This document shows positions 1-12,372 of a DNA stretch of 64,000 nt, in pieces (the first letter of the stretch is position 1; every line of letters starts with the position of its first letter). The position numbers were made by a program, and so were the translations under genes. The stretch is taken from the NCBI GenBank assembly GCA_026388185.1, contig JAPLKG010000003.1, forward strand, positions 22,871 to 86,870, read 5' to 3'. Below the pieces are notes generated by a model. It did no database searches. It was not told the DNA's origin and was given only the letters and a program-made list of their open reading frames with translations. Origin of the DNA: Candidatus Eiseniibacteriota bacterium. GTDB taxonomy: Bacteria; Eisenbacteria; RBG-16-71-46; JAFGJU01.

Positions 1-136
1 ACATCCAAGCGCCAGTATGCTGGGGGCACGCATGGTTGAGGTGATAGTTTCTTCTACAAATGGGGCAGATATGATACCGATCGTATTCCTTAATTGCCCC
101 ACCGCATGCGGGGCATATCCTGGCTCCCACACTGCA

Positions 137-1279
137 TCACCTCGAGGCAATCCAAGCCTCTCCCACGGTATTTCCTTTACTAAACAAGACTCGAATCAAA
201 TGATTTGGAGGGATATGCAGAGATCTGAGAGAATATCCGTCTTCAAGTTCTTCTGTATACTTATCTGGAACGACTGCCAATGCCCCACAGGCAGGACAGC
301 AAGATCTCAGGAACTTCCCAAGCAGGCATGGCTGGATTGTGTGAGAGCCACCACATCCACGACAAACGACGGAGTACACTATCTGTTTGTCGTGTCTAAC
401 TTCTACCTCAGAGCATCCGAGGGCGGCTCGAAGCCTATTCTTGATCGAAAGAACATCATCGTCTAGGAGAGACTCTAGAAGGACTTTCGACTTGTCTGGC
501 GGAGGAACATGAGCAGGGCAATTTTCTTTTCTTGGCACTTCCCAGGTCAGGAATGCCCCGTTTTCTCCATCGAACCAGAAGAACACACTACTCCGGGCGG
601 AAGGACCTGAGTGCTTCAGATGAAGGATCTTAATGCACTCTTGAGCTGCAATGCCTCCCGCTATTGCGCCCGACGTAATGACCATGGGGATCTTGGGCTC
701 ATCTGGAAGCATTCCTATCTTTGAGCAGCTGTGTCTTTCCCATAGTTGCTGATACTCCCTTTTGGTCCAGCTGCATTCAATACATGCTCCGGATGGTGTG
801 GCAACGAATACACTGCTGACCAGACCACCTATCCCCGTATCAACTAGAGGCGTACCGTGTAGCCGACAGTACCTATTCACCCATAGTCGTGCCTCCAGAT
901 TATCTACAGTCAAAACGACACAGTCAAAGGAACTATATTCGAGGCTACCGAAATCATAGACGACATCGCGGTTCCAGCCTCTGGTTGTGATCCCTGGGGC
1001 AATCTCCTTGGCACGCCTGGCGGCTGTCTCCGATTTGGACTTGCCAATGTCCTCGGCCCGAAACAAAACACATCTGTTCAGATTCACTTCCTCAACCACA
1101 TCGCTGTCCAGAACGCTGATTTCTCCTACACCTGTAAGAGCAAGATTCTTGATCACCTCGTTGCCTGTAGTTCCCGCACCAACAACGAGGACACGACCTC
1201 CAGAGACGGCTTCCTGACGCCATCCTTTTATCATCTTCTGTCTTGTATACCTATTCGACATGAGCCTGATGTTCCTCAC
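137..1279 (-). CDS. E1-like adenylyltransferase of the ThiF/MoeB/HesA family (ubiquitin-activating-like), with a C-terminal Cys-rich zinc-ribbon-like extension
   Basis: The Rossmann nucleotide motif VLVVGAGTTGNEVIKNLALTGVGEISVLDSD...NLNRC is diagnostic of ThiF/MoeB/E1. CxxC pairs (CIEC, CRGC, CPAC) follow the adenylation domain. It is the last gene of the Ubl-E2-JAB-E1 operon and overlaps the JAB gene by about 28 nt. Confidence 0.85.
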   Translation of the reverse strand: MRNIRLMSNRYTRQKMIKGWRQEAVSGGRVLVVGAGTTGNEVIKNLALTGVGEISVLDSDVVEEVNLNRCVLFRAEDIGKSKSETAARRAKEIAPGITTRGWNRDVVYDFGSLEYSSFDCVVLTVDNLEARLWVNRYCRLHGTPLVDTGIGGLVSSVFVATPSGACIECSWTKREYQQLWERHSCSKIGMLPDEPKIPMVITSGAIAGGIAAQECIKILHLKHSGPSARSSVFFWFDGENGAFLTWEVPRKENCPAHVPPPDKSKVLLESLLDDDVLSIKNRLRAALGCSEVEVRHDKQIVYSVVCRGCGGSHTIQPCLLGKFLRSCCPACGALAVVPDKYTEELEDGYSLRSLHIPPNHLIRVLFSKGNTVGEAWIASR

Positions 1280-2516
1280 TGACTATGACTTGATACTGAT
1301 GTGTATCCAGAATGGCTCTTTCTCGGTGGGACCAAACTCTAAACCTTAGCTCTTGTGTTGCCAATGCGTTAACGGACGGCGAAGCAATCAGAAAGTAGTC
1401 ACCGCAATATTCCTCAAGAGCACCCAATTCGGGTGTGGGCGAGTCAAAAAACCATCGCTTGCGGCTTTTGGTGAGAGCAGCGGTCGTTTTGGCATTGCAA
1501 TATACCCCGATCATCTGTAGACCTTTTCCGGGGTGTCCCGACGGTAAGGACGCCTCAGAGTGCCGAGACAGTGTGTTCGAAGACTGCGCGGCAAATCCTC
1601 TAATGTATTTTCGGTACTCTTCAATCCTTTCCAACCCTAAGGCCAGGGAATCCACTAGATTTATTAGGCTGCAGCCCGCAAGATGATCAGTATACCCAAA
1701 GAGCAGCCCACCACTTTGAGAGGAATGCATTTCCTGCCACAGCTTCTTGTTGACACGCACAGGAACAATCACCATTGGCATAGGGAAATTGAGTCCGGTC
1801 GGCCCGATTTTAAGCAGGTTATGCAACCGCGAGCTCGCTTGCGCTATCTCCTGTCCGAGGTCTCTTCCCAGCCGTCTCGCAAGTGCCTCGTCGATTTCGG
1901 GGCGTTTTTCCACAAGAATGACATTACCCCTTGCTACTCTCACCTGTGTGCCTTCGTTGTTCCACCCAAAGAAACCAATCCATTCTAAGTCTGACTCGAA
2001 GCCTTGCGACCTGACTCGACTCGGATCGACTACAGCTGCGACCTGATATTGCTCGGGATGATAGTCAGAGAAGTTCTTTGTGTCGGTCCCGGAGAAGAAT
2101 ATGCCCAGTTTCGGATGCGAATGATAATACCCTACAAGGATCGTGCCCTCTCTTAGCCGAACCGCCTCAACGTCTCTGAAGCTCTCGGGAACCATTCTCA
2201 CGTGGGTTGGAGTGGAGACGTAGAGAGCACGAATCGCTCTTTCGACGTAGGTAATCCGTACCCCACTATCGGCATCCATGGCAGGAAAACCCAAGAGATA
2301 CCCACCGACCTCATGGTGCATTTCTCCTGAGGCATGATAATACATTTCTCGCAACGCACCTTTTTGGATGAGAAGCAGCGGTAGGTCTTCACGTGGGAGC
2401 AAGTCGGAGGCTCGTACGAATCGTCGCTCATCATATCTTGTGACTTTGCCAACCCTCACAGCCTGATCATCATCCTCGCGACCTGTCAATCCAAGCACGT
2501 AAGCGAGCCATATCAA
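1251..2516 (-). CDS. JAB/MPN+ (JAMM) metallopeptidase, deubiquitinase-like, with a roughly 250 aa C-terminal extension
   Basis: The JAMM signature HSHPKLGIFFSGTDT (H-x-H-x7-S-x2-D) is present, with an upstream Glu in HASGEMHHEVGGYLLG. A second degenerate GGLLFGY segment lies downstream. The listed start overlaps the E2 gene, so the true start may be a downstream GTG or ATG. Confidence 0.8.
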   Translation of the reverse strand: MIWLAYVLGLTGREDDDQAVRVGKVTRYDERRFVRASDLLPREDLPLLLIQKGALREMYYHASGEMHHEVGGYLLGFPAMDADSGVRITYVERAIRALYVSTPTHVRMVPESFRDVEAVRLREGTILVGYYHSHPKLGIFFSGTDTKNFSDYHPEQYQVAAVVDPSRVRSQGFESDLEWIGFFGWNNEGTQVRVARGNVILVEKRPEIDEALARRLGRDLGQEIAQASSRLHNLLKIGPTGLNFPMPMVIVPVRVNKKLWQEMHSSQSGGLLFGYTDHLAGCSLINLVDSLALGLERIEEYRKYIRGFAAQSSNTLSRHSEASLPSGHPGKGLQMIGVYCNAKTTAALTKSRKRWFFDSPTPELGALEEYCGDYFLIASPSVNALATQELRFRVWSHRERAILDTHQYQVIVSEEHQAHVE

Positions 2517-3015
2517 TAGGCCTTATGTAACGTGAAAGGTTTCCGCGATTTCTCTTCCACCACTCCATCGCTCCAGGATTCGCAGGAGAGTTGGCGTCTA
2601 TCTTCCACATACTACCTTCTTCTTGATTGTATTGAAGATACTCAATGATGCCGCGGATCCAGTCCGCAAGAGCCAGATCCGGCTGAGGGGTGCCACCCGA
2701 CCCCCAACACAAACGCCCGTCGGGCCAAATGTGTGGGTGAAAAGGAATTGGGGAGCGAAATCTCAAGCCAGGCACAGCGGACCATGGGTACCCTGATGCA
2801 ATCTCAGCCGCGACCAAAAATGTGTCACCAATGGCTGAAGAGCCGAGAGATGGATTGCCGATGAGACTCTGTATTCCCTTGATGGTCAGTTCGAATCGGC
2901 TGAAGTCTAAGCTCTTCCGCTCAACTTCAAATCGAAGGGGAAGGATGGAGTCTGCATCCAAGATACTTTTGATCTTCAATAGGTGTCGAATTTCTGTATT
3001 AAACCTCTCATCCAT
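2470..3015 (-). CDS. E2-like ubiquitin-conjugating enzyme homolog (UBC fold)
   Basis: The motif FHPHIWPDGRLCWG resembles the eukaryotic/prokaryotic E2 HPN...C active-site region, with the Cys 10 residues after HP. It is about 180 aa and sits between the Ubl and JAB genes. Confidence 0.65.
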   Translation of the reverse strand: MDERFNTEIRHLLKIKSILDADSILPLRFEVERKSLDFSRFELTIKGIQSLIGNPSLGSSAIGDTFLVAAEIASGYPWSAVPGLRFRSPIPFHPHIWPDGRLCWGSGGTPQPDLALADWIRGIIEYLQYNQEEGSMWKIDANSPANPGAMEWWKRNRGNLSRYIRPIDMARLRAWIDRSRG

Positions 3016-3086
3016 AAGCAGCCCCTTTGAACAATCAAGGTTATTCTCTGTCCGCGGATCTATTCGGACAACTACTCATCACAGGG

Positions 3087-3335
3087 CTAGCCCCCAACCT
3101 CCATTCTGGCTAGGGTTAGCTTGTCTCCGCTTTGCACCAATTTGTCCAGCGTTGCATCCCCACTGATTGGCTTACCATCTGAACCCAGCAATTTGTATGA
3201 ACCCTCTGCTGGCAACCCCAGTTGAGGGGCCACCAACGTACATACCTGCTGCGCATTGTCACCCGGAAATATTTCCACTTCCGCAGAAGCTGTACCGCCA
3301 GCCCTAACTATGGTTACCTTCTTGCCCTCTGCCAT
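3087..3335 (-). CDS. Ubiquitin-like beta-grasp protein ending in a native C-terminal Gly-Gly
   Basis: The 82 aa protein ends ...LTLARMEVGG followed directly by a stop codon. A strong Shine-Dalgarno (caagaGGAGGcagaaATG) precedes the start. It is the first gene of the operon. Confidence 0.75.
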   Translation of the reverse strand: MAEGKKVTIVRAGGTASAEVEIFPGDNAQQVCTLVAPQLGLPAEGSYKLLGSDGKPISGDATLDKLVQSGDKLTLARMEVGG

Positions 3336-3898
3336 TTCTGCCTCCTCTTGTACGATTTCATGTTATTGAACGCCAAGACTCCATCTCCGCGCCCTTCAAA
3401 CTCCAGGGAAAGGCAAAATAGTAAAGCCCCATCAGAACCGATGAGACCTAGTCCATTTTATGAAGACGCGCGAATCATCCAGGACCAACAAAGCGTTCGT
3501 GCCTCCACTTATGTTCTTCTCACCAAAACATCAGTTGCCTTCGATTTATGTAGCACAAATTGTATCACCAAAGTACCTACCGTGCAAGCAGAAACATCTG
3601 GTGGCGCAGCGGCCGCTCATTCCACGAATAGTCAAGACCCAGTAGACGCTCTTCTCACAGTTAGGGAAATCTGAACCCGAGGACTTATCGAAACCTGGGT
3701 CATGCGAGTTTGCCGGCTGCCCCCCACAAGTGACCCGGCCTTCCAGTCAACCGGCTTCTTTCTCACAACAGATTCGCGTCCACCCGCGGATACATTTCGT
3801 GTCTCGCGGATGGAAAGAAGGCCGCCACAGAATTGGGCGGACCCTTACAGAGGCCCTCCACCCTCAAGCTGTAGATAGAGGAGCACTCCGCGGCGTCC

Positions 3899-6307
3899 TC
3901 ACTTCGGTGGGTTTGTAATGACCTTCACCGGCTTTTTGGCATCCTCATGTGGCCACGGCTCAAGCTCTTGAATGTGCCTGCCAAGTTCGGGATAGGAATC
4001 CAATCTCGGCACATTTCGCATGGTTACTTGGCCGAGGGAGATATCGTGAAATCGAGACGCCAAAATTTCTATGCTGCGGATCCCATCAAATGGCATGGCA
4101 TTGTAGAATACCCTGAGTACATTTTGGTCGATGCTCGAGATTGGTCCGAAAACTCGATTGAGGAAATTAACGCCGTGGTAAACCAGTTCCGTTCGTCGGC
4201 GCTTGCTTTCAGGGTCGCTCCGAACCATCCTTTTCATCAGTACCTTTCGTCTTTCTTCGTCCTGCTCTGCATGAAGCTTTTCCCTACGGTCACCCCCAAA
4301 GAAATCCAACTCAATAATTGGTCCATTTATCCTGGACAAAAAGTCGCGCCCCTTCGATTCGACTCTCAGGTGGTTGAGAGGTTTAGTAGAAGCAAATACC
4401 CAGACGCAGGGTTCGATACGGTATGTGGTCCCTTCCGATGCGAAAGAGCCGTCCCATATCGGGCCCAAAAGAAGACCCATAGCTGTGTGGCTCTCAATCT
4501 GGGCATCTATTTCATCCACAAAAACGAGAACGCGGGCCCGTGTACGATTCTGAACAGACATTATCTGTTTAAGCGAGTTCATTAGATCCTGATTAGAGGC
4601 CATCTGGGCGACCGAGAAACTGAGATGTTGAAAATCAAAATGCTGGGCTAGACACTTCGCCAGAGTGCTTTTCCCCCATCCCGGTTCCGCGAGAAGAAGG
4701 CAATTAAAGGGGTACCGTGGATCTCGTTCATTTCCATACGCCTGCAGCCGGGTTATCAATTTGTTTATCTCAGATCGCTTATCTCCACCGGGACAGATGT
4801 AATCCTTGAGCGTTCCGTGAGCGCGCCAGAGATGAATCTGCTTTTCCCCGCCTACCGTAACAACCCCTTGGCCAATCGATGAACGATTCCACTCGTGCCA
4901 GCTCGCCAGATAAGTGAGCCGGTGAGACAGTCTCTGGCGGGGCCCGACCACCGCTGGAGGCCAGGGTGGCCTGTAGATCGCTTGGTCGAAGGGTCCAGTT
5001 AGATTAGAGGGCTTCTTTTCCAACCAAGCCTTCGTACAGCTGTCAGTCCAAAGGTACGCGTTTCGGAGCGCCCAAGAGCACGCACTGCTCATAGAGTTCC
5101 GCAGAGGGACAAACATCTGGTCCCAGTATACAAGCGAAGAAAAGAAAACTGTGGAGCGTCCAACGCAGATAGGTTTCTTTTCACCTGGCGCGCTGGCGAT
5201 GTTGACGAGATAAGCGTCATCTTTCTCGCGGCTCCGATTAGAGTGCCTACCCCGGACCCTTTTTGTGCCTGTAGTGCTCGTCGCAGCAATCACTGTATCA
5301 TCCTCGAACAAGAGGGCAGCATTCTCCGGCTTTACTCGAACAGAGTGGATTGTCTTAGTGTGGAGATACTTCTTCAGCCCAAGGAGATCACCCAGGACTT
5401 CCAAAGCTGCATGCCCTAGGACGGTCGGTCCGTGGCGCCAGACGCGTACCCCGTATGTATACTCCAGCAACTGTTCATCGGTAAACGTCAGCCGCGGTTT
5501 CTTCCTCGCTTTCTTCAGTTCGTCCATCCACGTTGCGGACTCTAGCTTGCTCCGAATGTACCATTTAGCCTTCGGAAAGGCCCTATGGAGCCGTTTGACC
5601 AGCTCATTGTCGATCACTCCATAGCCGTGATCGACCGCAACAATCGCGTCAACCTCAGTTTTGGGAATGGATTTCTTGATCTCACCCACGATGCCGTAGT
5701 TCTTGTACTGATTGTCGAGATCCAGTTTCCAATCGAAACGATATTGAAGACGAGGTTGATCACTGCCAAACCCTTCATAAAGACGGACCAAGTGGTTGGA
5801 AGACGTATTTGTTGCGGCTTTGGGGCAGTTTGTCTTAACTAGATTGAACATCGACCGCTGGTAGCAGCACTCAGTTTGAGTCCTGAGATGCGGACACCAC
5901 CTCTTGGCCTTGCTATTCCAGTGCGGAGTCGTGAGACCGGATAAACGGTACGGTGTGAGCCCTATGCTCACATCTTTCTTGTCACACAGCAGACACATAA
6001 GGAGATTGCTATCACTTGGGTTCCATGCCGTAAGCAAAAGCAGTTCGCATTTCTCCACCATTGAAGGAACCATGGATTTCCCCGCTGAGACAGTGCGATG
6101 TTGAAGACCCGGACCCCGTAGGGTGCGCCAAACACTAGCTGCTCCGCAAAAACTTATGATCCGGCAATCGGCGTTTGGCAGATTGCTAATGTAGTGTTCC
6201 TTGCCAACGTTGTAGCTGTGGTAGATGTCTCCGCGCGACATCAGCCAGTTCTCATCGATGAAGGAATCACCAACAATGAGCACAACGCGCTTCTGGTTGG
6301 ATGGCAT
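3899..6307 (-). CDS. Fusion protein: N-terminal PfkB/RfaE-domain-I-like carbohydrate-kinase fold plus C-terminal P-loop NTPase (STAND/AAA+-like)
   Basis: The N-terminus has VVLIVGDSFIDENW, CGAASVW and AIVAVDHGYG, which resemble the HldE/PfkB motifs VGDvmLDrYW, GGAANVA and SDYaKG. The C-terminal half has Walker A LLAEPGWGKSTLAKCL and Walker B RVLVFVDEID. The ORF track starts at a GTG at 6367, but a GGAGG Shine-Dalgarno precedes the in-frame ATG about 60 nt downstream (MPSNQKR...), so the start is called near 6307. Confidence 0.6.
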   Translation of the reverse strand: MPSNQKRVVLIVGDSFIDENWLMSRGDIYHSYNVGKEHYISNLPNADCRIISFCGAASVWRTLRGPGLQHRTVSAGKSMVPSMVEKCELLLLTAWNPSDSNLLMCLLCDKKDVSIGLTPYRLSGLTTPHWNSKAKRWCPHLRTQTECCYQRSMFNLVKTNCPKAATNTSSNHLVRLYEGFGSDQPRLQYRFDWKLDLDNQYKNYGIVGEIKKSIPKTEVDAIVAVDHGYGVIDNELVKRLHRAFPKAKWYIRSKLESATWMDELKKARKKPRLTFTDEQLLEYTYGVRVWRHGPTVLGHAALEVLGDLLGLKKYLHTKTIHSVRVKPENAALLFEDDTVIAATSTTGTKRVRGRHSNRSREKDDAYLVNIASAPGEKKPICVGRSTVFFSSLVYWDQMFVPLRNSMSSACSWALRNAYLWTDSCTKAWLEKKPSNLTGPFDQAIYRPPWPPAVVGPRQRLSHRLTYLASWHEWNRSSIGQGVVTVGGEKQIHLWRAHGTLKDYICPGGDKRSEINKLITRLQAYGNERDPRYPFNCLLLAEPGWGKSTLAKCLAQHFDFQHLSFSVAQMASNQDLMNSLKQIMSVQNRTRARVLVFVDEIDAQIESHTAMGLLLGPIWDGSFASEGTTYRIEPCVWVFASTKPLNHLRVESKGRDFLSRINGPIIELDFFGGDRREKLHAEQDEERRKVLMKRMVRSDPESKRRRTELVYHGVNFLNRVFGPISSIDQNVLRVFYNAMPFDGIRSIEILASRFHDISLGQVTMRNVPRLDSYPELGRHIQELEPWPHEDAKKPVKVITNPPK

Positions 6308-6370
6308 GACTTCCTCCTGAATAATTACGAGCCCTCTATCTACACCAGCGGGAGGCGTCTTGCGCACGCA

Positions 6371-7690
6371 TCAAAGATCAGACCTTTTCCTTGCCCACCG
6401 CACAATGGGTCCGAGGACCAGTCTGGCGACAAACTTGGTAACCGTACTGCTGGAAACAAACCCTGCCAAAGATGGGGAAACAAAATAATAGAGTCTGACT
6501 GCGAATGCACCGAGGCGGGAGTGTAATAACACTTCATCCCGAAATCTACTTAGTGTCGCCACCTCTGATGCCAGCGGAGAGTCAAACGCAGCAGTTGCGA
6601 TGAAACAGCGCGAACCTACACCTTCCACCTTGTACAGGTCCATACCCGGGGGCTCGAACTTCAGCACTATGAGTATTGTTGTTTCCCCAGCCAATCTTCT
6701 GGCCTCATCGAGAACTGCCAGGTCATCCGGAGCGAAGGAGCCGACTAGCTTAGTTCGGAAGTTGCCTTTGTACATGGCTGCTGGTTTTCCTTCTCTCAGA
6801 ATCGTGACGCGATCCTTCCTGTATTGGCTCTCGAGTTCGAGTATGCCTTCCCCAACTTCCTTGATTCTGGAGTTTCTGGCAACCTCTGTCTCCGCTGTGC
6901 CAATCGATTCCAACAGTCGTACGGTATTCCTGCGCGACACTTCATTCGTGTCGTGACTGAGACAAGTTTTGAGATCCTGAACAGCCTTGTCTTTCTCCCC
7001 CATGAGCAGCCACAGGTAGCCTCGATTGAAGTAAGTCGGAGGGTGATCAGGAGCCAGAGCAATGGCCCTCTCAAATGCGTCTAGTGCGAGCTCGTAGTAC
7101 TCTCCAGCTTTCGCCTCCTGCCCGGATTTGGTAAGCTCTGCCCCCATCGTCTTGTACACGTTTCCTAGACTGTTGAGTGGATGCGGCATCTTTGGCGATG
7201 AGGACACTGCCCGTCTTGCCCACTCCAATGCCAAATCGTACTTCCCTTTGTGGGTGTATATGATGGCGAGGGAATTCATCGCATCAGCAGCGTCGGGCGA
7301 TTCTTCAACACCATATTCGAGAGCCCAAGCCGCGAGATCCTCCTCACCGAGTCTTGCAAGCTGCATTCCCATATGCACCAACATGCGAGCAAGAGGCCAG
7401 TCGTCAAAATCGGCGGGATGCTTGCACTTCGCTCTTTGCAGAATAGAAGTGGCGCGACTAACAAGCTCAAGCCCCGGAATTCGGCGAAGAACGTCAAGTT
7501 TATCCTCGTCGCTCGGAAATTCCTTGAGGATCTTGCTCCGAAAGCGGGCTTTCTCCGCTTTCGAGAGGTTTGTGAAGTGCTGCACTTCCTTCTTCAGTGC
7601 GCGTTCCATATCAATCAGCTGAATTGTCGACAGACCTTGCGTTTGTTGGTGAATGCTGTCGATTTCGTCCATCTTGGATCCTCCATTCAC
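6371..7690 (-). CDS. TPR-repeat protein with a conserved C-terminal CFIATAAF...LSRFRD module
   Basis: Multiple 34-aa TPR-like repeats are present (AIIYTHKGKYDLALEWARRAV, LGNVYKTMG, YYELALDAFERAIALAPDHPPTYFNRGYLWLLMGEKDKAV). Its stop is 3 nt from the start of the downstream kinase/NTPase gene, implying translational coupling. Confidence 0.7.
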   Translation of the reverse strand: MNGGSKMDEIDSIHQQTQGLSTIQLIDMERALKKEVQHFTNLSKAEKARFRSKILKEFPSDEDKLDVLRRIPGLELVSRATSILQRAKCKHPADFDDWPLARMLVHMGMQLARLGEEDLAAWALEYGVEESPDAADAMNSLAIIYTHKGKYDLALEWARRAVSSSPKMPHPLNSLGNVYKTMGAELTKSGQEAKAGEYYELALDAFERAIALAPDHPPTYFNRGYLWLLMGEKDKAVQDLKTCLSHDTNEVSRRNTVRLLESIGTAETEVARNSRIKEVGEGILELESQYRKDRVTILREGKPAAMYKGNFRTKLVGSFAPDDLAVLDEARRLAGETTILIVLKFEPPGMDLYKVEGVGSRCFIATAAFDSPLASEVATLSRFRDEVLLHSRLGAFAVRLYYFVSPSLAGFVSSSTVTKFVARLVLGPIVRWARKRSDL

Positions 7691-8253
7691 GGAAAGGCCA
7701 GCAGCTGCGCTGGCCAGACTCAGGTGAAGGTTACATCAGAATAACGTCCGCGTCCTACCGGTGATGGAAATCTAGGGAGTTCTAGCTAAACGTATCAAAT
7801 CTGCCGGCTTGATAAATCAAAGCGTTAGTATATCACTAAAATACTGCCAGTGCAAGGGCGAAATCTCAGTGGTGTTCCATTAACTGGTGCTGATTGAGGT
7901 CTGAAGGCGACCAGTCAGGGCGGAAATTGATCACGTCGCTGCTGCCAACTTGGAGACATCCAAGCCGATGGACCCAGAGAGTGCAGTCATTTGTTTGCAA
8001 CCACGACATGAGCTCCAGATTATCACACATGTGACATGACACGACAGTGCCCAAACGAAACGTCACCTCTATGCATTGCTCTTGCTAACATCCTCCTAAC
8101 AAAACATCCCAAAACACCCCGAAAAACGAGAAAACACCAGAAAACGTGAGACCGCACAACTCTTTTCTGTTGTTACAGCTACGTCCCTGATGTTCTCTCT
8201 TGTTGTGACATCACAACGTTCTCATAACCCAAAGGTCGCTGGTTCACCTCGCT

Positions 8254-8577
8254 TCACGGCTTTCCTGTAATCTTCTGAAGCGTGGAGTCCCAGAGGTAAC
8301 CGGCGATCAAGGCGTGGCGCCAATCCGCCAACATCTTGCCGCCAACAGCTACAATCACCAGGGCAACGGCCAGCGAGAAGACAGAAAGTTTCGCGTAGGG
8401 CCCAACGTGCGGCCACACTGCTCGCAGCACCTTCGCCATTCTTCGCGTTAGCGGCGGCTTCTTGGGTTGCAGGCTCGAGCCCGGTGTCGTCGGGCCATAG
8501 GTTTTCTTGAATTCTTCGCTGACGGACTTTGCCGGCACAGATGTTTTGACCCCCGCTGCCAGCTGTAGTAAATTCAT
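8254..8577 (-). pseudogene. Truncated N-terminal fragment of an ABC exporter (MsbA-like transmembrane-domain N-terminus)
   Basis: The translation ...MAKVLRAVWPHVGPYAKLSVFSLAVALVIVAVGGKMLADWRHALIAGYLW resembles the start of type-I ABC exporter transmembrane domains (compare MsbA FRRLWPYI.PYK). The reading frame stops after 107 aa, far short of a full exporter, and it is divergent from the ABC-F gene. Confidence 0.4.
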
Positions 8578-8582
8578 GCGTT

Positions 8583-10880
8583 ATGGCACTAGTAACCACG
8601 CATGACCTCGGGAAATCTTTCGGCCTGGTAGATGTTTTCGCCGGTTTGTCTCTGAGTGTCCCTCGCGGGGCGCGCATTGCCGTGGTCGGGCCGAACGGAA
8701 TCGGGAAAACGAGCCTGCTGCGCGTCATCGCAGGGAAGGAACCTCCCTCCGCGGGTACGGTCCACCGCTCTCGGGGCCTCACGATCGGCTACTTGCCACA
8801 GGAATCTGTTTTCGAATCGGCTAACACTCTCTGGGACGAATGCCTGATTCCTCTGGCCCACTTGCTCGCGCAACAGAAGGAGCTGACCCGTCTCGAGGCC
8901 GAGATGGTCGCTGGCGGGAACGATGCCGCTGTCGGGAACGCCGGCGGGGCCGGGGGCATAGCCGAGACTGGGAACGCTGCTGGCGAGACCGCTGGGGCTG
9001 GCGATACTGCCGTAGCTGGAAACACCGGCCGCAGCGTTGAAGACACCCTGGAGCGCTACGGCGCGCTGCAGGCTCGCTTCGAAGAGGCCGGGGGGTACAC
9101 TTACGAGACGCGCATCCGACAGGTGCTCACGGGTCTGGGCTTCTCCCCCGACGAATACGCCCTACCCCTGACGTGCCTTTCGGGCGGACAGCGCACCCGG
9201 GCCCTTCTGGCGCGTTTATTGATAGAGAAGCCGGGTCTATTGATTCTCGACGAGCCGACCAATCATCTCGACGTCTCTGCCGTTGAATGGCTGGAAAGTT
9301 ACATCAGAGACTGGGACGGCGCCGTCCTCATCGTCTCACACGACCGCTATCTCCTCGACAAGGTCTGCAACAACGTCTGGGAAATGAGCAGGGCCGGGGT
9401 CGAGGCCTATCGCGGCAACTATAGCCACTACCTGCGCCAGCGTCAGGAGCGCTGGGATCGGCGTTCGACGGAGTTCGAGGCCGAGAAGGCTCGCCTCGAG
9501 AAAGAAATGGACTACGTCAAGCGGAACATCGCCGCGCAAAACGTAGCTCAAGCCAGGGGGCGTCTCAAACGCATGAGCCGCCAGATTCAGGCCATCGAAC
9601 AGATTGGACTGGACGCCATGCGGGGTAGGAAGTGGCTCAACATAAGTGAGGACGTGCAGACAACTACGGGTGTGATGACTGCGGAGGAGGCAGAACGACG
9701 GATCAAGTCCCTGCGCAATCCAATCCATCGCCCGAAAGAACTCAAGTTCAGACTTGCGGCCGGTCAGCGCGGCGGGAACATCGTACTTCGCACCCGTGAC
9801 CTGGCTGTCGGTTATCCCGGCAATCATCTTTTCACCGTCCCCGACATCGACCTCCAGCGCCTCGGGTGTGTCGCTCTCATCGGTCCCAACGGCTCCGGCA
9901 AGACCACGTTTCTTAAAGTCATCCTCGGCAAGCTTCCCCCTCTCAGCGGTGAGGCGCAAGTCGGGGCCAGTCTTGACGTCGGCTACTTCGCTCAGGCTCA
10001 CGAGGGTCTCAATCTGGACAACACACTTATGCAGGAGATCGAGTCGGTCGCTCCCCGCATGCTGGTTGACGCGATCCGAGGCTACCTTGCCCGCTACCTC
10101 TTCACCGGTGAGGACGTCTTCAAGAAAGTCCAAGTCCTCTCGGGTGGCGAGCGCGGACGCCTGGCGCTCGCGAAGCTTGCCTTGAGCAACGCCAACCTCT
10201 TGCTCCTCGACGAGCCGACCAATCACCTCGACATCCCTTCCCAGGAAGTTCTCCAAAACGTGCTGGTCGACTTCGACGGGACAATCATCCTGGTTTCGCA
10301 CGATCGCTTCCTGATCGACGCTCTGGCGACTCAGGTCTGGGAGATCGATAGAGATCACGCCGTCCTCAAGATTTTCGAGGGAACCTACAGCGAGTATCGC
10401 GCGAGTGGAGGGTCTCCCGGAGTTTCAGGTACGGCGGCGCGCGCGCCGGCAGTGGGCAGTTCTGCGGCGCAAGGCTCGGCGGCGGGTGGTTCTGCGATGC
10501 GCGACTCGATCACGCGCGGTCCTGCCCTCCAAGGTCCGACGTCGCAGGGCCCCGCGGCGCCAAGTTCAGCGGCACCACGCTCGGCGGCGGACGACTCTCA
10601 TTTACAGAAAGGTGACGCTTTCCGCAAGGCTCGCGCTGCCAAGAACCGCGAGATCGCCGAGGAGCGCCGTGCCCTCGCTCGGGAAAGGCGCCGCAAGGCT
10701 CGCATTGCAGAACTCGAAGGCCGCATTGCGATTCTACAAGAAGAAGTTACTCGTCTCGGAGGAAGTCTCGCCGATCCCCCGTCCGACCGGGCCGAGATCC
10801 TACGTTTGGGCGAAGAGTACATGCGCACAGAGAGCGAGATGGAGGCGCTCATCGCCGAGTGGGAGAACTTACAGGGGTGA
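8583..10880 (+). CDS. ABC-F family ATPase (two ABC nucleotide-binding domains, no transmembrane domain; EttA/Uup-like) with Gly/Ala-rich insertions and a coiled-coil tail
   Basis: There are two Walker A motifs (GPNGIGKTS, GPNGSGKTT), two ABC signatures (LSGGQRTRALLARLL, LSGGERGRLALAKL) and two Walker B motifs (LLILDEPTNHLD, LLLLDEPTNHLD). Confidence 0.9.
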   Translation: MALVTTHDLGKSFGLVDVFAGLSLSVPRGARIAVVGPNGIGKTSLLRVIAGKEPPSAGTVHRSRGLTIGYLPQESVFESANTLWDECLIPLAHLLAQQKELTRLEAEMVAGGNDAAVGNAGGAGGIAETGNAAGETAGAGDTAVAGNTGRSVEDTLERYGALQARFEEAGGYTYETRIRQVLTGLGFSPDEYALPLTCLSGGQRTRALLARLLIEKPGLLILDEPTNHLDVSAVEWLESYIRDWDGAVLIVSHDRYLLDKVCNNVWEMSRAGVEAYRGNYSHYLRQRQERWDRRSTEFEAEKARLEKEMDYVKRNIAAQNVAQARGRLKRMSRQIQAIEQIGLDAMRGRKWLNISEDVQTTTGVMTAEEAERRIKSLRNPIHRPKELKFRLAAGQRGGNIVLRTRDLAVGYPGNHLFTVPDIDLQRLGCVALIGPNGSGKTTFLKVILGKLPPLSGEAQVGASLDVGYFAQAHEGLNLDNTLMQEIESVAPRMLVDAIRGYLARYLFTGEDVFKKVQVLSGGERGRLALAKLALSNANLLLLDEPTNHLDIPSQEVLQNVLVDFDGTIILVSHDRFLIDALATQVWEIDRDHAVLKIFEGTYSEYRASGGSPGVSGTAARAPAVGSSAAQGSAAGGSAMRDSITRGPALQGPTSQGPAAPSSAAPRSAADDSHLQKGDAFRKARAAKNREIAEERRALARERRRKARIAELEGRIAILQEEVTRLGGSLADPPSDRAEILRLGEEYMRTESEMEALIAEWENLQG

Positions 10881-10971
10881 GCAGAAGCAGGGTCTGCGCG
10901 CCTTACGTGAGTCCTTGCGCTCTTCGAGAAATGGTAAGAGTCACAAGAGTGAGCAAGAAAGGGGTTAGACC

Positions 10972-12372
10972 ATGCGTATGCCGAACAAGGTGAAGCTGTC
11001 CTGTGCGGCAACGTGCGTAGCAATGATCGTGCTTTCCCTGGCAGTCACGGTTTTGGCTTCGGAGCAGTCGAAATTCGAGGACGCCAAGGAAAAGGGTACG
11101 ATCGAGGCTTACGAGAAATTTCTGAAAAAGTATCCGCAGGGAGAGCTCGCCGAGCAAGCCGTGGGCGAAATCTACAAGCTGGTCAGTAAGGAAGATTCGA
11201 TCGAGCTCTACAGAGATTTCGTCAACAGGTATCCGACCGATTCCTGGTCCGCACAGGCCAAGAGCCGCATCGAATACCTCCAGTCGGCAGAGAGAGAGTA
11301 CGTCAGCGTAGATACGTCCAGCGTTCCTGACTTGGAAGCTTTTGTGTCCAAGTTTCCAACGGGTCCACTTTCCATGACGGTGAGGGAGAAGGTTGAAAAC
11401 GCCAACATGCGCAGGATACGTGAAGGAGAAAAACGCTTCACTATTCCCGAGATACTGCCAGGAAAGGGCGCGGGAAGTTTCCACTTAGCAATAGCGCCGT
11501 CGGAGAACCACCCCGATGTCTTTCTCTACGAGAGCATGTATCCGGGGGACACAGTACCTTTCAGAGTTAGGATGGGTGGTGAGTATCCCTTGAACGGGGT
11601 TGGGATCGGAACAGGCAGCATATTCGCTACGATCGAGAATCTTGATTTCCTGAGCAGCGGTTCGATTGTGCGTTTTCGAGGAAAGATCACGTACAAGGGA
11701 TGTACGTTTAACGGGGACCAGCAGGATCCTCTGTCGTTCGCCCTCCTGGATGGAAAGGGTCTGGTTTATGTCACAGGGAAAGGAAAGGTCACGTTGAAGG
11801 ACGGGCGCGAAGTGACACTGCCCATGCCTCAAGCTGCAACGAACCGGGCTTTACCGTCGGGCCAGAGCAGTCCGAACGGTCATTCTGCGGCGCCGGGGGA
11901 TCAAGGCAGTTCGAGCAGTCGTTCCACGGCGGCCTCAACTCCGGAATGGGTCAAGACGTTGGACCAAGTCATCTCCGAAAACCAGAACCGACCCGTTCGT
12001 GTGTTCATCGAGACGGACAGAGAGGCGTATTGCGCGGGTGACTCGATTCTTGTCGTCGCCGTGGGGGAGAACACATCCGACGAGGTGGTCAATATAGGCG
12101 ATTACTGGAGTGGCAGGGTGGTCAGCGTTTTTCTGAGAAACCGGGACAAGGCGACAACATATACCGTCGTGGACATCACGTTCGATACTGTGACGCCCTC
12201 GATTGTCCAGCTCGACCCTCACAAGGTCGCCCTACTTGGAAGCGTCTCCTTCAATTCGCGATTGGGGAAAGATGAATCGGAGCTAGTTGGGAACTACATG
12301 CTCTACCTGAGGATGGGCAAACTGATATCGTCCCCGTGGGCAATTCGTCTCGTCAAGAGAGACCAACAATAG
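10972..12372 (+). CDS. Secreted hypothetical protein with a signal peptide
   Basis: The N-terminus has a hydrophobic signal sequence (KLSCAATCVAMIVLSLAVTVLASEQ). No catalytic motif was recognised. Codon usage is consistent with the flanking genes. Confidence 0.55.
   Translation: MRMPNKVKLSCAATCVAMIVLSLAVTVLASEQSKFEDAKEKGTIEAYEKFLKKYPQGELAEQAVGEIYKLVSKEDSIELYRDFVNRYPTDSWSAQAKSRIEYLQSAEREYVSVDTSSVPDLEAFVSKFPTGPLSMTVREKVENANMRRIREGEKRFTIPEILPGKGAGSFHLAIAPSENHPDVFLYESMYPGDTVPFRVRMGGEYPLNGVGIGTGSIFATIENLDFLSSGSIVRFRGKITYKGCTFNGDQQDPLSFALLDGKGLVYVTGKGKVTLKDGREVTLPMPQAATNRALPSGQSSPNGHSAAPGDQGSSSSRSTAASTPEWVKTLDQVISENQNRPVRVFIETDREAYCAGDSILVVAVGENTSDEVVNIGDYWSGRVVSVFLRNRDKATTYTVVDITFDTVTPSIVQLDPHKVALLGSVSFNSRLGKDESELVGNYMLYLRMGKLISSPWAIRLVKRDQQ

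Follow-up and report, generated by a model that had tools for sequence, protein, structure and literature searches.

Many AAA+ ATPases are coupled to sensor domains, and in activators of the NtrC1/PspF type an N-terminal regulatory domain is followed by the ATPase. In a 64,000-nucleotide stretch of a Candidatus Eiseniibacteriota genome (contig JAPLKG010000003.1; this whole stretch is called the window below, and coordinates refer to it unless a homolog locus is named), we studied a minus-strand gene whose product joins a domain predicted to have the ribokinase/PfkB fold of sugar kinases to a C-terminal AAA+ ATPase. This protein, called the fusion below, is encoded next to a cassette for a ubiquitin-like protein (Ubl), an E2-like protein, a JAB/MPN protein and an E1. 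We hold, with moderate confidence, that it is a self-contained accessory protein in which a PfkB-derived, ligand-binding pseudokinase would gate an intact AAA+ ATPase, apart from the Ubl cassette.

Several described systems come close to one or the other part of this arrangement. The best structural match of the N-terminal domain (N-domain) is with HldA/HldE domain I (RfaE), the D-glycero-beta-D-manno-heptose-7-phosphate kinase of the PfkB family (PDB 4e84, 4e8y), and the order of motifs is shared: VGDxxxDxxW on strand 1 (VGDVMLDRYW in HldE), GGA or CGA, then D-x-x-K-G. However, the N-domain has only about 10% identity to these kinases and no match at the sequence level, appears to lack GAGD and NXXE, and carries some 130 extra inserted residues; unlike HldE, the fusion has no adenylyltransferase partner, lies outside lipopolysaccharide (LPS) loci and is joined to a AAA+ ATPase. 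The alpha/beta fold with a lid is shared with ribokinase (E. coli RbsK, human RBKS) and other PfkB carbohydrate or nucleoside kinases, which gave dozens of matches at E 1e-9 to 1e-7, and the domain can be aligned with them in full by profile, co-linearly if weakly, but the fusion has Ser or Thr at the putative equivalent of Asp255, no NXXE, and is not recognised by PF00294. On the ATPase side, the AAA+ proteins with an N-terminal sensor (the NtrC1/PspF activators, with ClpB, Lon, RuvB and Vps4 as neighbours) have in common with it the Walker A/B core, and it has candidates for sensor-1 and the arginine finger as well as a sensor-2-like arginine. In contrast to them, the fusion has no GAFTGA loop, DNA-binding domain, aromatic pore loop or protease domain, and a PfkB-like N-domain is described for none of them, within the reach of our searches. 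Lastly, the neighbouring cassette is like BilABCD, the ISG15-like anti-phage operons, in its gene order Ubl-E2-deubiquitinase(JAB)-E1 (10.1101/2023.09.26.559546). A AAA+ fusion is not a component of BilABCD; it is absent beside the relatives of the cassette, and Bil genes are absent from all loci of its homologs.

A kinase-like fold joined to a AAA+ ATPase

The minus-strand open reading frame (ORF) runs from a GTG, at window positions 3899..6367, and would encode 822 residues (aa), and an internal ATG at 6307 gives a product of 802 aa (3899..6307). The ATG was preferred because an AGGAGG precedes it. A database protein with the very same 802-aa sequence, the NCBI gene call P0001, is an 'AAA family ATPase' encoded on a 165-kb contig of a Candidatus Eisenbacteria metagenome-assembled genome (MAG), and since the ATG start is that of this call, the limits 3899-6307 proposed in an initial annotation of the window are correct. 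All the motifs quoted there were found again; in 802-aa numbering, they are VGDSFIDENW at 12-21, CGAAS at 54-58, DHGYG at 226-230, GWGKSTLA at 543-550 and LVFVDEID at 594-601. The gene is real, and the observation that had drawn attention to it is confirmed.

With the full-length AlphaFold model (pLDDT 79, pTM 0.80), Foldseek returned only AAA+ proteins, and the N-domain was therefore modelled separately, as residues 1-445 (AF2, pLDDT 73.5, pTM 0.82). Compared with the PDB, this second model had 194 matches at E ≤ 1e-3, and nearly every one was a kinase of the ribokinase/PfkB family. Ranks 1 to 7 were occupied by HldA of Burkholderia cenocepacia (best 4e8y, E 4e-11, target-normalised TM 0.65, about 10% identity), and ribokinases matched at E ~1e-9 to 1e-7, the human enzyme coming next after HldA and the E. 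coli one lower. In a Pfam scan, PF00294 (PfkB) did not match the protein even at E ≤ 1, and no PDB sequence matched the N-domain profile at E ≤ 10. Local hhalign of a 13-sequence profile against PfkB stayed below Prob 1%. A 100-sequence family profile aligned co-linearly, if weakly, with RbsK, HldE and one PfkB protein (aa 1-419 versus 1-284, E 0.004, Prob 8%). A search from E. coli HldE was of little use for a diverse kinase profile, since all it retrieved was enterobacterial HldE of at least 84% identity. Judged from the model, the resemblance to ribokinases exceeds chance, and the N-domain is predicted to be a ribokinase/PfkB fold whose nearest relative is HldA/RfaE domain I. The two-domain reading of the initial annotation, an RfaE/HldE domain I-like ribokinase/PfkB fold followed by a P-loop NTPase, is thus upheld, with HldA first in Foldseek and PF00004 passing its cut-off (see below). 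The kinase-like domain is indeed N-terminal, but its length had been put at about 330 aa, and with insertions it reaches about 430 aa.

A cluster of cysteines, C105, C108, C138 and C147 (aa 105-148; 5864-5995, minus strand), lies within an insertion of the kinase-like lid that was modelled with low confidence. All four are invariant or nearly so in close homologs, and C138 and C147 are still the majority residues family-wide. The cluster may be a zinc site.

Phosphoryl transfer in PfkB kinases is defined by two motifs, the GAGD anion hole with the catalytic Asp, and NXXE, which coordinates Mg2+ and phosphate. Residues were placed in register with PfkB from the weak hhalign alignment given above and from their strand-then-helix position in the model, and conservation was read from an alignment of 117 full-length family members. 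By this weak profile alignment, G383-R384-S385-T386 stands opposite A252-A253-G254-D255 of ribokinase. The family consensus at this place is G-[RMW]-[TSA]-[ST]: 113 of the 117 members have Ser or Thr at residue 386, which is aligned with the catalytic Asp, and just 6 carry an Asp or Glu anywhere in 382-387. The positions aligned with NXXE, 278 and 281, are variable across the family (gap, P or E, and A or L, respectively), and the motif is absent. Both motifs that define PfkB phosphoryl transfer thus appear to be missing from the N-domain.

The other side of the domain presents the opposite picture. The conserved residues of the N-domain are concentrated in its first 260 aa, a region that corresponds to the substrate-pocket and lid side of a PfkB fold. 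G13, D14, D18, E19, W21, G35, H38, C54-G55-A56, W95 and D99, and further on T170, R172, R175, R190, D192, W193, D226, G230 and K254, are conserved at 84-100%; G93 and W260 also belong to the conserved set. In the strand-1 motif, G13, D14, D18 and W21 reach 93-97%, and E19 84%. Two of these places have a counterpart in the sugar-binding side of E. coli ribokinase, again by weak alignment: D18 (97%) falls opposite the sugar-binding Asp16, and C54-G55 (88% and 87%) opposite the GG dipeptide of RbsK, G41-G42. The ATP-binding half, aa 270-445, is far less conserved, only L273, W290 and L392 exceeding 80%. This distribution indicates that the sugar-pocket side has been kept under strong selection.

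The C-terminal half is AAA+, and it is the only half that Pfam recognises: PF00004 (AAA) matches aa 557-627 with E 1.2e-7 and 32.6 bits, for a cut-off of 21.2. A profile of the 17 full-length homologs hit only classical AAA proteins in the PDB (Rpt4, Vps4, spastin, Msp1, FtsH), over the Walker A-Walker B stretch alone, and Foldseek of the full-length model matched RuvB, ClpB, PspF, Lon, NtrC1 and HslU. Sequence thus favours the classical AAA clade, whereas Foldseek favours RuvB, ClpB and PspF. In the same model, the linker that precedes this half is a small beta unit, then a helix (508-525) leading into the AAA core. Among the 117 members, G543 of Walker A is conserved at 99% and G545 and K546 at 100%, as are D598 and E599 of Walker B. 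In the candidate second region of homology (SRH), D655 and R659 reach 99% and S658 91%; upstream, the sensor-1 position T641 is Thr in 88% and Ser in 8%. Sensor-1 and arginine-finger roles were assigned to T641 and R659 by position, so these remain putative. A sensor-2-like arginine, R744, is present in 113 of the 117 members (96%). Because the ATPase motifs are almost invariant, the ATPase is almost certainly active.

The initial annotation had placed the Walker motifs closer to STAND/NB-ARC or AAA+ modules than to metabolic kinases. AAA+ was the right half of this alternative, as the PF00004 score makes clear; STAND/NB-ARC was rejected, with nSTAND3 and nSTAND_NTPase5 at E 0.03 and 14.5 bits, below cut-offs of 27-34, and with a Walker B 'DE' and an SRH-type Arg present in the protein.

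The same architecture is found well beyond the window. A word-indexed search of 5.8 billion clusters gave 21 relatives, and 17 homologs are full-length, at 41-65% identity. When a hidden Markov model of the N-domain was run over 1.84 billion cluster representatives (clustered at 50% identity), 398 scored at E ≤ 1e-3, 285 at E ≤ 1e-10 and 71 at E ≤ 1e-30. Most of the 398 are 700-900 aa long, and PF00004 was present at the C-terminus in all ten distant members tested. The fusion defines a coherent family. It is represented in MAGs of Eisenbacteria, Zixibacteria, Ignavibacteriaceae, Desulfobacterium, Desulfobacterales, Thermodesulfobacteriota, Syntrophorhabdaceae, Nitrospirae and Eubacteriales, and a scan of 185,579 species genomes gave 11 loci, a number limited by the search patterns used. 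The family is rare and phylogenetically patchy. A scan of viral contigs gave no relatives, and the viral structures of BFVD nothing at E ≤ 1e-3.

In Pfam, NCBIfam, PHROGs and PADLOC, the N-domain has no curated model. The best matches in PADLOC-DB v2 were short (E 0.03-0.04), and no profile of a defence system there matched. Relatives are named in their sources just 'AAA family ATPase', 'ATP-binding protein' or 'hypothetical', and a literature search on PfkB/ribokinase with AAA+ and defence found nothing relevant; the 'PfkB' of the literature on KKP in Pf phages is an unrelated Ser/Thr kinase. Profile libraries, literature and PDB thus gave no characterised protein with this fusion, as the initial annotation had supposed, within the reach of these searches.

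In a 1003-aa member (locus L022, 5214-8225, plus strand), about 150 extra residues lie between the kinase-like domain and the AAA+ core, and in the region of these extra residues P0042 has a weak Sina/TRAF-like match (PF03145, E 0.0014, aa 516-594). The N-terminal extension of the homolog P0005 looks like upstream read-through.

Genomic neighbourhoods

In the window, a minus-strand row begins with a tetratricopeptide repeat (TPR) gene (7690-6371) and continues with the fusion gene, a 563-bp spacer, the Ubl gene (3335-3087), the E2-like gene (3015-2470), the JAB/MPN gene (2516-1251) and the ThiF-type E1 gene (1279-137). The same-strand position between the TPR gene (6371-7690) and the Ubl-E2-JAB-E1 cassette (3335 down to 137) had been noted correctly at the outset. 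The 82-aa Ubl ORF (3087-3335, minus) ends in ...ARMEVGG, a di-glycine C-terminus, and sits directly upstream of the E2-like gene. Within the spacer (3336-3898), there is no minus-strand ORF above 44 aa, and Rfam finds nothing in 1-9000. A terminator-like hairpin with an 11-pair stem (3449-3424, minus) lies in the spacer, and it is a hint only, since the total of the terminator scan, like that of the promoter scan, was not above shuffled controls.

The GC content is 0.49-0.54 over positions 1-8400, versus 0.60-0.64 at 8400-11000, with a sharp step near 8.2-8.4 kb. Because the composition of 1 to about 8400 is set apart in this way, the TPR gene, the fusion gene and the Bil-like cassette share one compositionally distinct low-GC island, and this continues past the left end of the window. 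In the whole window there is no tRNA gene.

The initial annotation took the same-strand position between a TPR protein and a ubiquitination-like operon as a sign of a sensor or effector role in a defence island. We gathered 40 homolog loci by exact look-up and by genome and metagenome scans, of which 36 are non-redundant; at least 1.5 kb is available downstream in 19 of these, and upstream in 26. No match to the Ubl, E2, JAB or E1 of the window was found by tblastn in the 40 loci (0/36 non-redundant). The surroundings of the homologs vary from case to case, and all-versus-all comparison of 922 flanking ORFs from 37 loci revealed no conserved neighbour, only generic ABC ATPases recurring. TPR as a conserved partner was rejected as well, the TPR protein of the window having no counterpart next to any fusion homolog. 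Conversely, homologs of the JAB protein led to two related cassettes, at L043 (8135-11295) and L044 (8125-11409), with a Ubl of 80-89 aa, an E2 of 181-184 aa, a JAB protein and an E1 of 374-375 aa, and neither has a fusion gene or a TPR gene. Since the homolog loci lack the cassette and the related cassettes lack the fusion gene, the adjacency seen here is not a conserved functional link, and a functional tie to the Ubl operon is not supported. The Ubl-E2-JAB-E1 cassette of the window is a self-contained module. Published Bil operons are likewise four-gene units in the order Ubl-E2-DUB-E1, and 'AAA' is absent from the main text of the paper describing them (bioRxiv 10.1101/2023.09.26.559546).

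Conflict or mobile-element genes neighbour the family at about 9 of 37 loci, window included (Table 1), which amounts to guilt by association. These contexts fit a mobile accessory gene, and a defence-island role of the fusion gene, proposed in the initial annotation, is plausible, the gene itself lying in a low-GC island. The doubt expressed there about a role in LPS heptose metabolism is shared here: no adenylyltransferase domain and no PF00294 match were found in the protein, and homologs are not in LPS core loci.

The arrangement at L006 resembles an insertion scar beside mnmE. Restriction-like GmrSD_N (DUF262-type) proteins, homologous to each other, lie upstream of two unrelated members (L022 and L023) and are the sole recurring defence-type neighbour, at 2 of 37 loci.

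Weighing the possible roles

We propose that the N-domain descends from an HldA/RfaE-like PfkB sugar kinase which would have lost its phosphoryl-transfer machinery and retained its substrate-pocket and lid side. It would bind a small phosphorylated sugar or nucleotide-type ligand without phosphorylating it, and binding may control either the assembly (oligomerisation) or the ATPase cycle of the C-terminal AAA+ module. This module would be the catalytically intact working part, acting on some target. The protein would work alone and not as part of the Ubl-E2-JAB-E1 (Bil-like) cassette, the two being co-resident cargo of one low-GC island. Several observations speak against this proposal. The PfkB residue register was taken from a profile alignment that is weak (hhalign Prob 8%) and from secondary-structure position, and segments of the lid were modelled with low confidence (pLDDT below 50 at aa 21-49, 69-78, 113-126, 178-186 and 349-360). 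In place of a passive pocket, the N-domain could have a new active site, built from its many invariant Asp, Arg, His and Lys residues. On the output side, no effector-type domain was detected in scans with Pfam, PADLOC, NCBIfam and PHROGs. Protein-translocating classical AAA carry an aromatic-hydrophobic-Gly pore loop 1, and this loop is absent here, the segment between strand 2 and helix 2 being [SN]-I-[TA]-Q-M (565-569). Finally, among the other loci with flanks long enough, about 10 (about half of those that can be judged) lie amid core or housekeeping genes.

This last point is also what gives weight to another explanation, in which the fusion serves certain anaerobic lineages as a housekeeping or stress AAA+ chaperone or regulator, has no defence role and lies in the island by coincidence. 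About half of the loci with usable flanks have the gene amid aspS, phoH, ybeY, tig, clpP, mnmE, yidC, sat/apr and polysaccharide genes, and the family has no relatives in viral contigs and no PADLOC match. Against it stand the rarity and patchy spread of the family (11 loci in the species genomes, with the limit of search patterns given above), a genomic position that is never conserved, restriction, HEPN, toxin-antitoxin, integrase or transposase neighbours at several loci, and the atypical GC here for the window. We regard it as possible, though rather doubtful. The charged residues that trouble the pseudokinase proposal lead to a further explanation, that of a working kinase or other sugar/nucleotide enzyme with a re-invented active site, as a bifunctional metabolic or signalling enzyme. 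HldA is the nearest structure of the PfkB fold, HldE-like motifs are kept (VGDxxxDExW, CGA, D-x-x-K-G), the invariant charged residues are unusually many (D14, D18, E19, H38, D99, R172, R175, R190, D192, D226, K254), and a phosphate could still be bound by the conserved G-x-x-[ST], at the N-terminal end of a helix. This makes an active enzyme conceivable, but we think it improbable: the catalytic Asp and NXXE are both missing, the ATP-binding half is the least conserved part of the domain, PF00294 finds no match at E ≤ 1, and no metabolic neighbourhood is conserved. An HldE-type bifunctional enzyme in particular was rejected, as genuine HldE carry PF01467 where the fusion has PF00004, and no homolog locus is an LPS core locus.

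Two other explanations are essentially excluded by the conservation data. One makes the fusion an accessory of the adjacent Bil-like cassette, either a Cdc48/p97-like unfoldase for Ubl-conjugated phage proteins or an infection sensor switching the cassette on. The gene shares its strand and the low-GC island with Ubl-E2-JAB-E1, which follows 563 bp downstream, and its Walker A-Walker B region scores best against classical-clade AAA (proteasomal Rpt subunits, Vps4, Cdc48-type). Yet the four Bil-like genes occur at none of the 36 homolog loci, the cassettes at L043 and L044 do without the fusion gene, the published Bil operons are four-gene units, the two are set apart here by a long spacer that holds a terminator-like hairpin, and the protein has neither a canonical pore loop nor a Ubl-binding domain; an accessory role is thus very unlikely. 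The other, an artefact of mis-assembly or read-through joining two genes, was considered solely because the source is a MAG, and nothing was found in its favour. Its chance is negligible: 17 aligned homologs, which come from independent samples, share the full-length architecture, as do over 100 distant representatives with lengths of 650-1010 aa; conservation is unbroken over the junction (W473, W494-R495, K510-R511), and the full-length model has pTM 0.80.

Compared with these, the gated pseudokinase remains the explanation that we prefer, and a role in phage or mobile-element conflict is a speculative addition to it. In a more specific version, which we consider unlikely, the fusion would be a single-gene immune sensor whose degenerate HldA-like pocket detects an infection metabolite, a phosphosugar or nucleotide, and triggers the assembly of a AAA+ machine, by which a target in host or phage is remodelled or disabled. 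The signal could then be a heptose-phosphate, ADP-heptose-like or nucleotide-derived, and the sensor would be independent of the ubiquitin-like cassette, though co-located with it. A PfkB/HldA-derived pseudokinase as a AAA+ sensor would be new, within the reach of the literature and profile libraries searched. If the pocket binds a sugar phosphate or a nucleotide, it would add a case of a metabolic enzyme fold recruited for signalling, and the family might be a new stand-alone defence gene. It is coherent, strongly conserved and wholly unannotated, and its adjacency here to a Bil-like operon is not to be taken as a five- or six-gene ubiquitination system.

Feature coordinates and other genes of the window

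Table 1. Features of the fusion gene in the window, and conflict or mobile-element neighbours at homolog loci (coordinates of the latter are those of the locus).
Feature	Position	Strand	Basis or remark
Whole gene, PfkB-like domain plus AAA+ domain	3899..6307	minus	ORF list; stop codon 3899-3901
Shine-Dalgarno-like AGGAGG	6313..6318	minus	sequence read directly; 5-6 nt upstream of ATG 6307
Predicted ribokinase/PfkB-fold domain, aa 1 to ~432, with long helical hairpin (aa 384-430) at its end	5012..6307	minus	AF2 models and Foldseek
Strand-1 motif VGDSFIDENW, aa 12-21	6245..6274	minus	family conservation
G383-R384-S385-T386, putative site of PfkB 'GAGD', no acidic residue	5150..5161	minus	weak hhalign register and model position
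Linker/pre-AAA region, aa 433-530; conserved W473, G481, W494-R495, K510-R511	4718..5011	minus	80-99% conservation, 117 members
AAA+ ATPase core, aa 531 to ~680	4268..4717	minus	PF00004, PDB profile, Foldseek
Walker A GWGKST, aa 543-548	4664..4681	minus	conservation in 117 members (see text)
Walker B LVFVDEID, aa 594-601	4505..4528	minus	conservation in 117 members (see text)
D655-F-L-S-R659, second region of homology, candidate arginine finger R659	4331..4345	minus	assigned from its place among the classical AAA motifs
AAA+ lid and C-terminal extension, aa 681-802, with sensor-2-like R744	3902..4267	minus	model: helices 684-720, then small alpha/beta unit
Spacer between fusion gene and Ubl gene, 563 bp	3336..3898	minus	context only, outside the protein
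Locus L023: GmrSD_N	3758-5589		RiboL-PSP/MAE_28990 HEPN protein after it
Locus L022: GmrSD-like protein	1983-3119		with AAA_15/AAA_21/DUF3696 ATPase; upstream of the 1003-aa member
Locus L015: phage integrase
Locus L017: AAA_14/DUF4143
Locus L004: SNF2, RelA_SpoT, NA37, Fic
Locus L008: PIN toxin
Contig of P0009: IS66
Locus L006: member P0006, 47-aa MnmE_helical fragment, PDDEXK_2 protein, then intact mnmE	205-5501

Some of the other proteins encoded around the fusion gene have features of their own. In the JAB/MPN protein (1251-2516, minus), only aa 53-152 of 421 belong to the recognisable Prok-JAB domain; no family matches the other 270 or so residues, and the long form is kept in relatives of 381-427 aa (P0288-P0297). 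Beyond the GC step, the high-GC flank starts with a 765-aa ABC-F-like protein (8583-10880, plus), which has two ABC ATPase cassettes. These read GPNGIGKTSLL...LSGGQRTR, then GPNGSGKTTFL...LSGGERGR, and Ala/Gly-rich low-complexity inserts are present in the middle of the protein and near its C-terminus. At the C-terminus of the 439-aa TPR protein (6371-7690, minus) lies a CFI-box-CTERM domain (NF041770, E 3.8e-20, aa 362-430, motif CFIATAAFDSPLA), which suggests a sorted or membrane-anchored protein.

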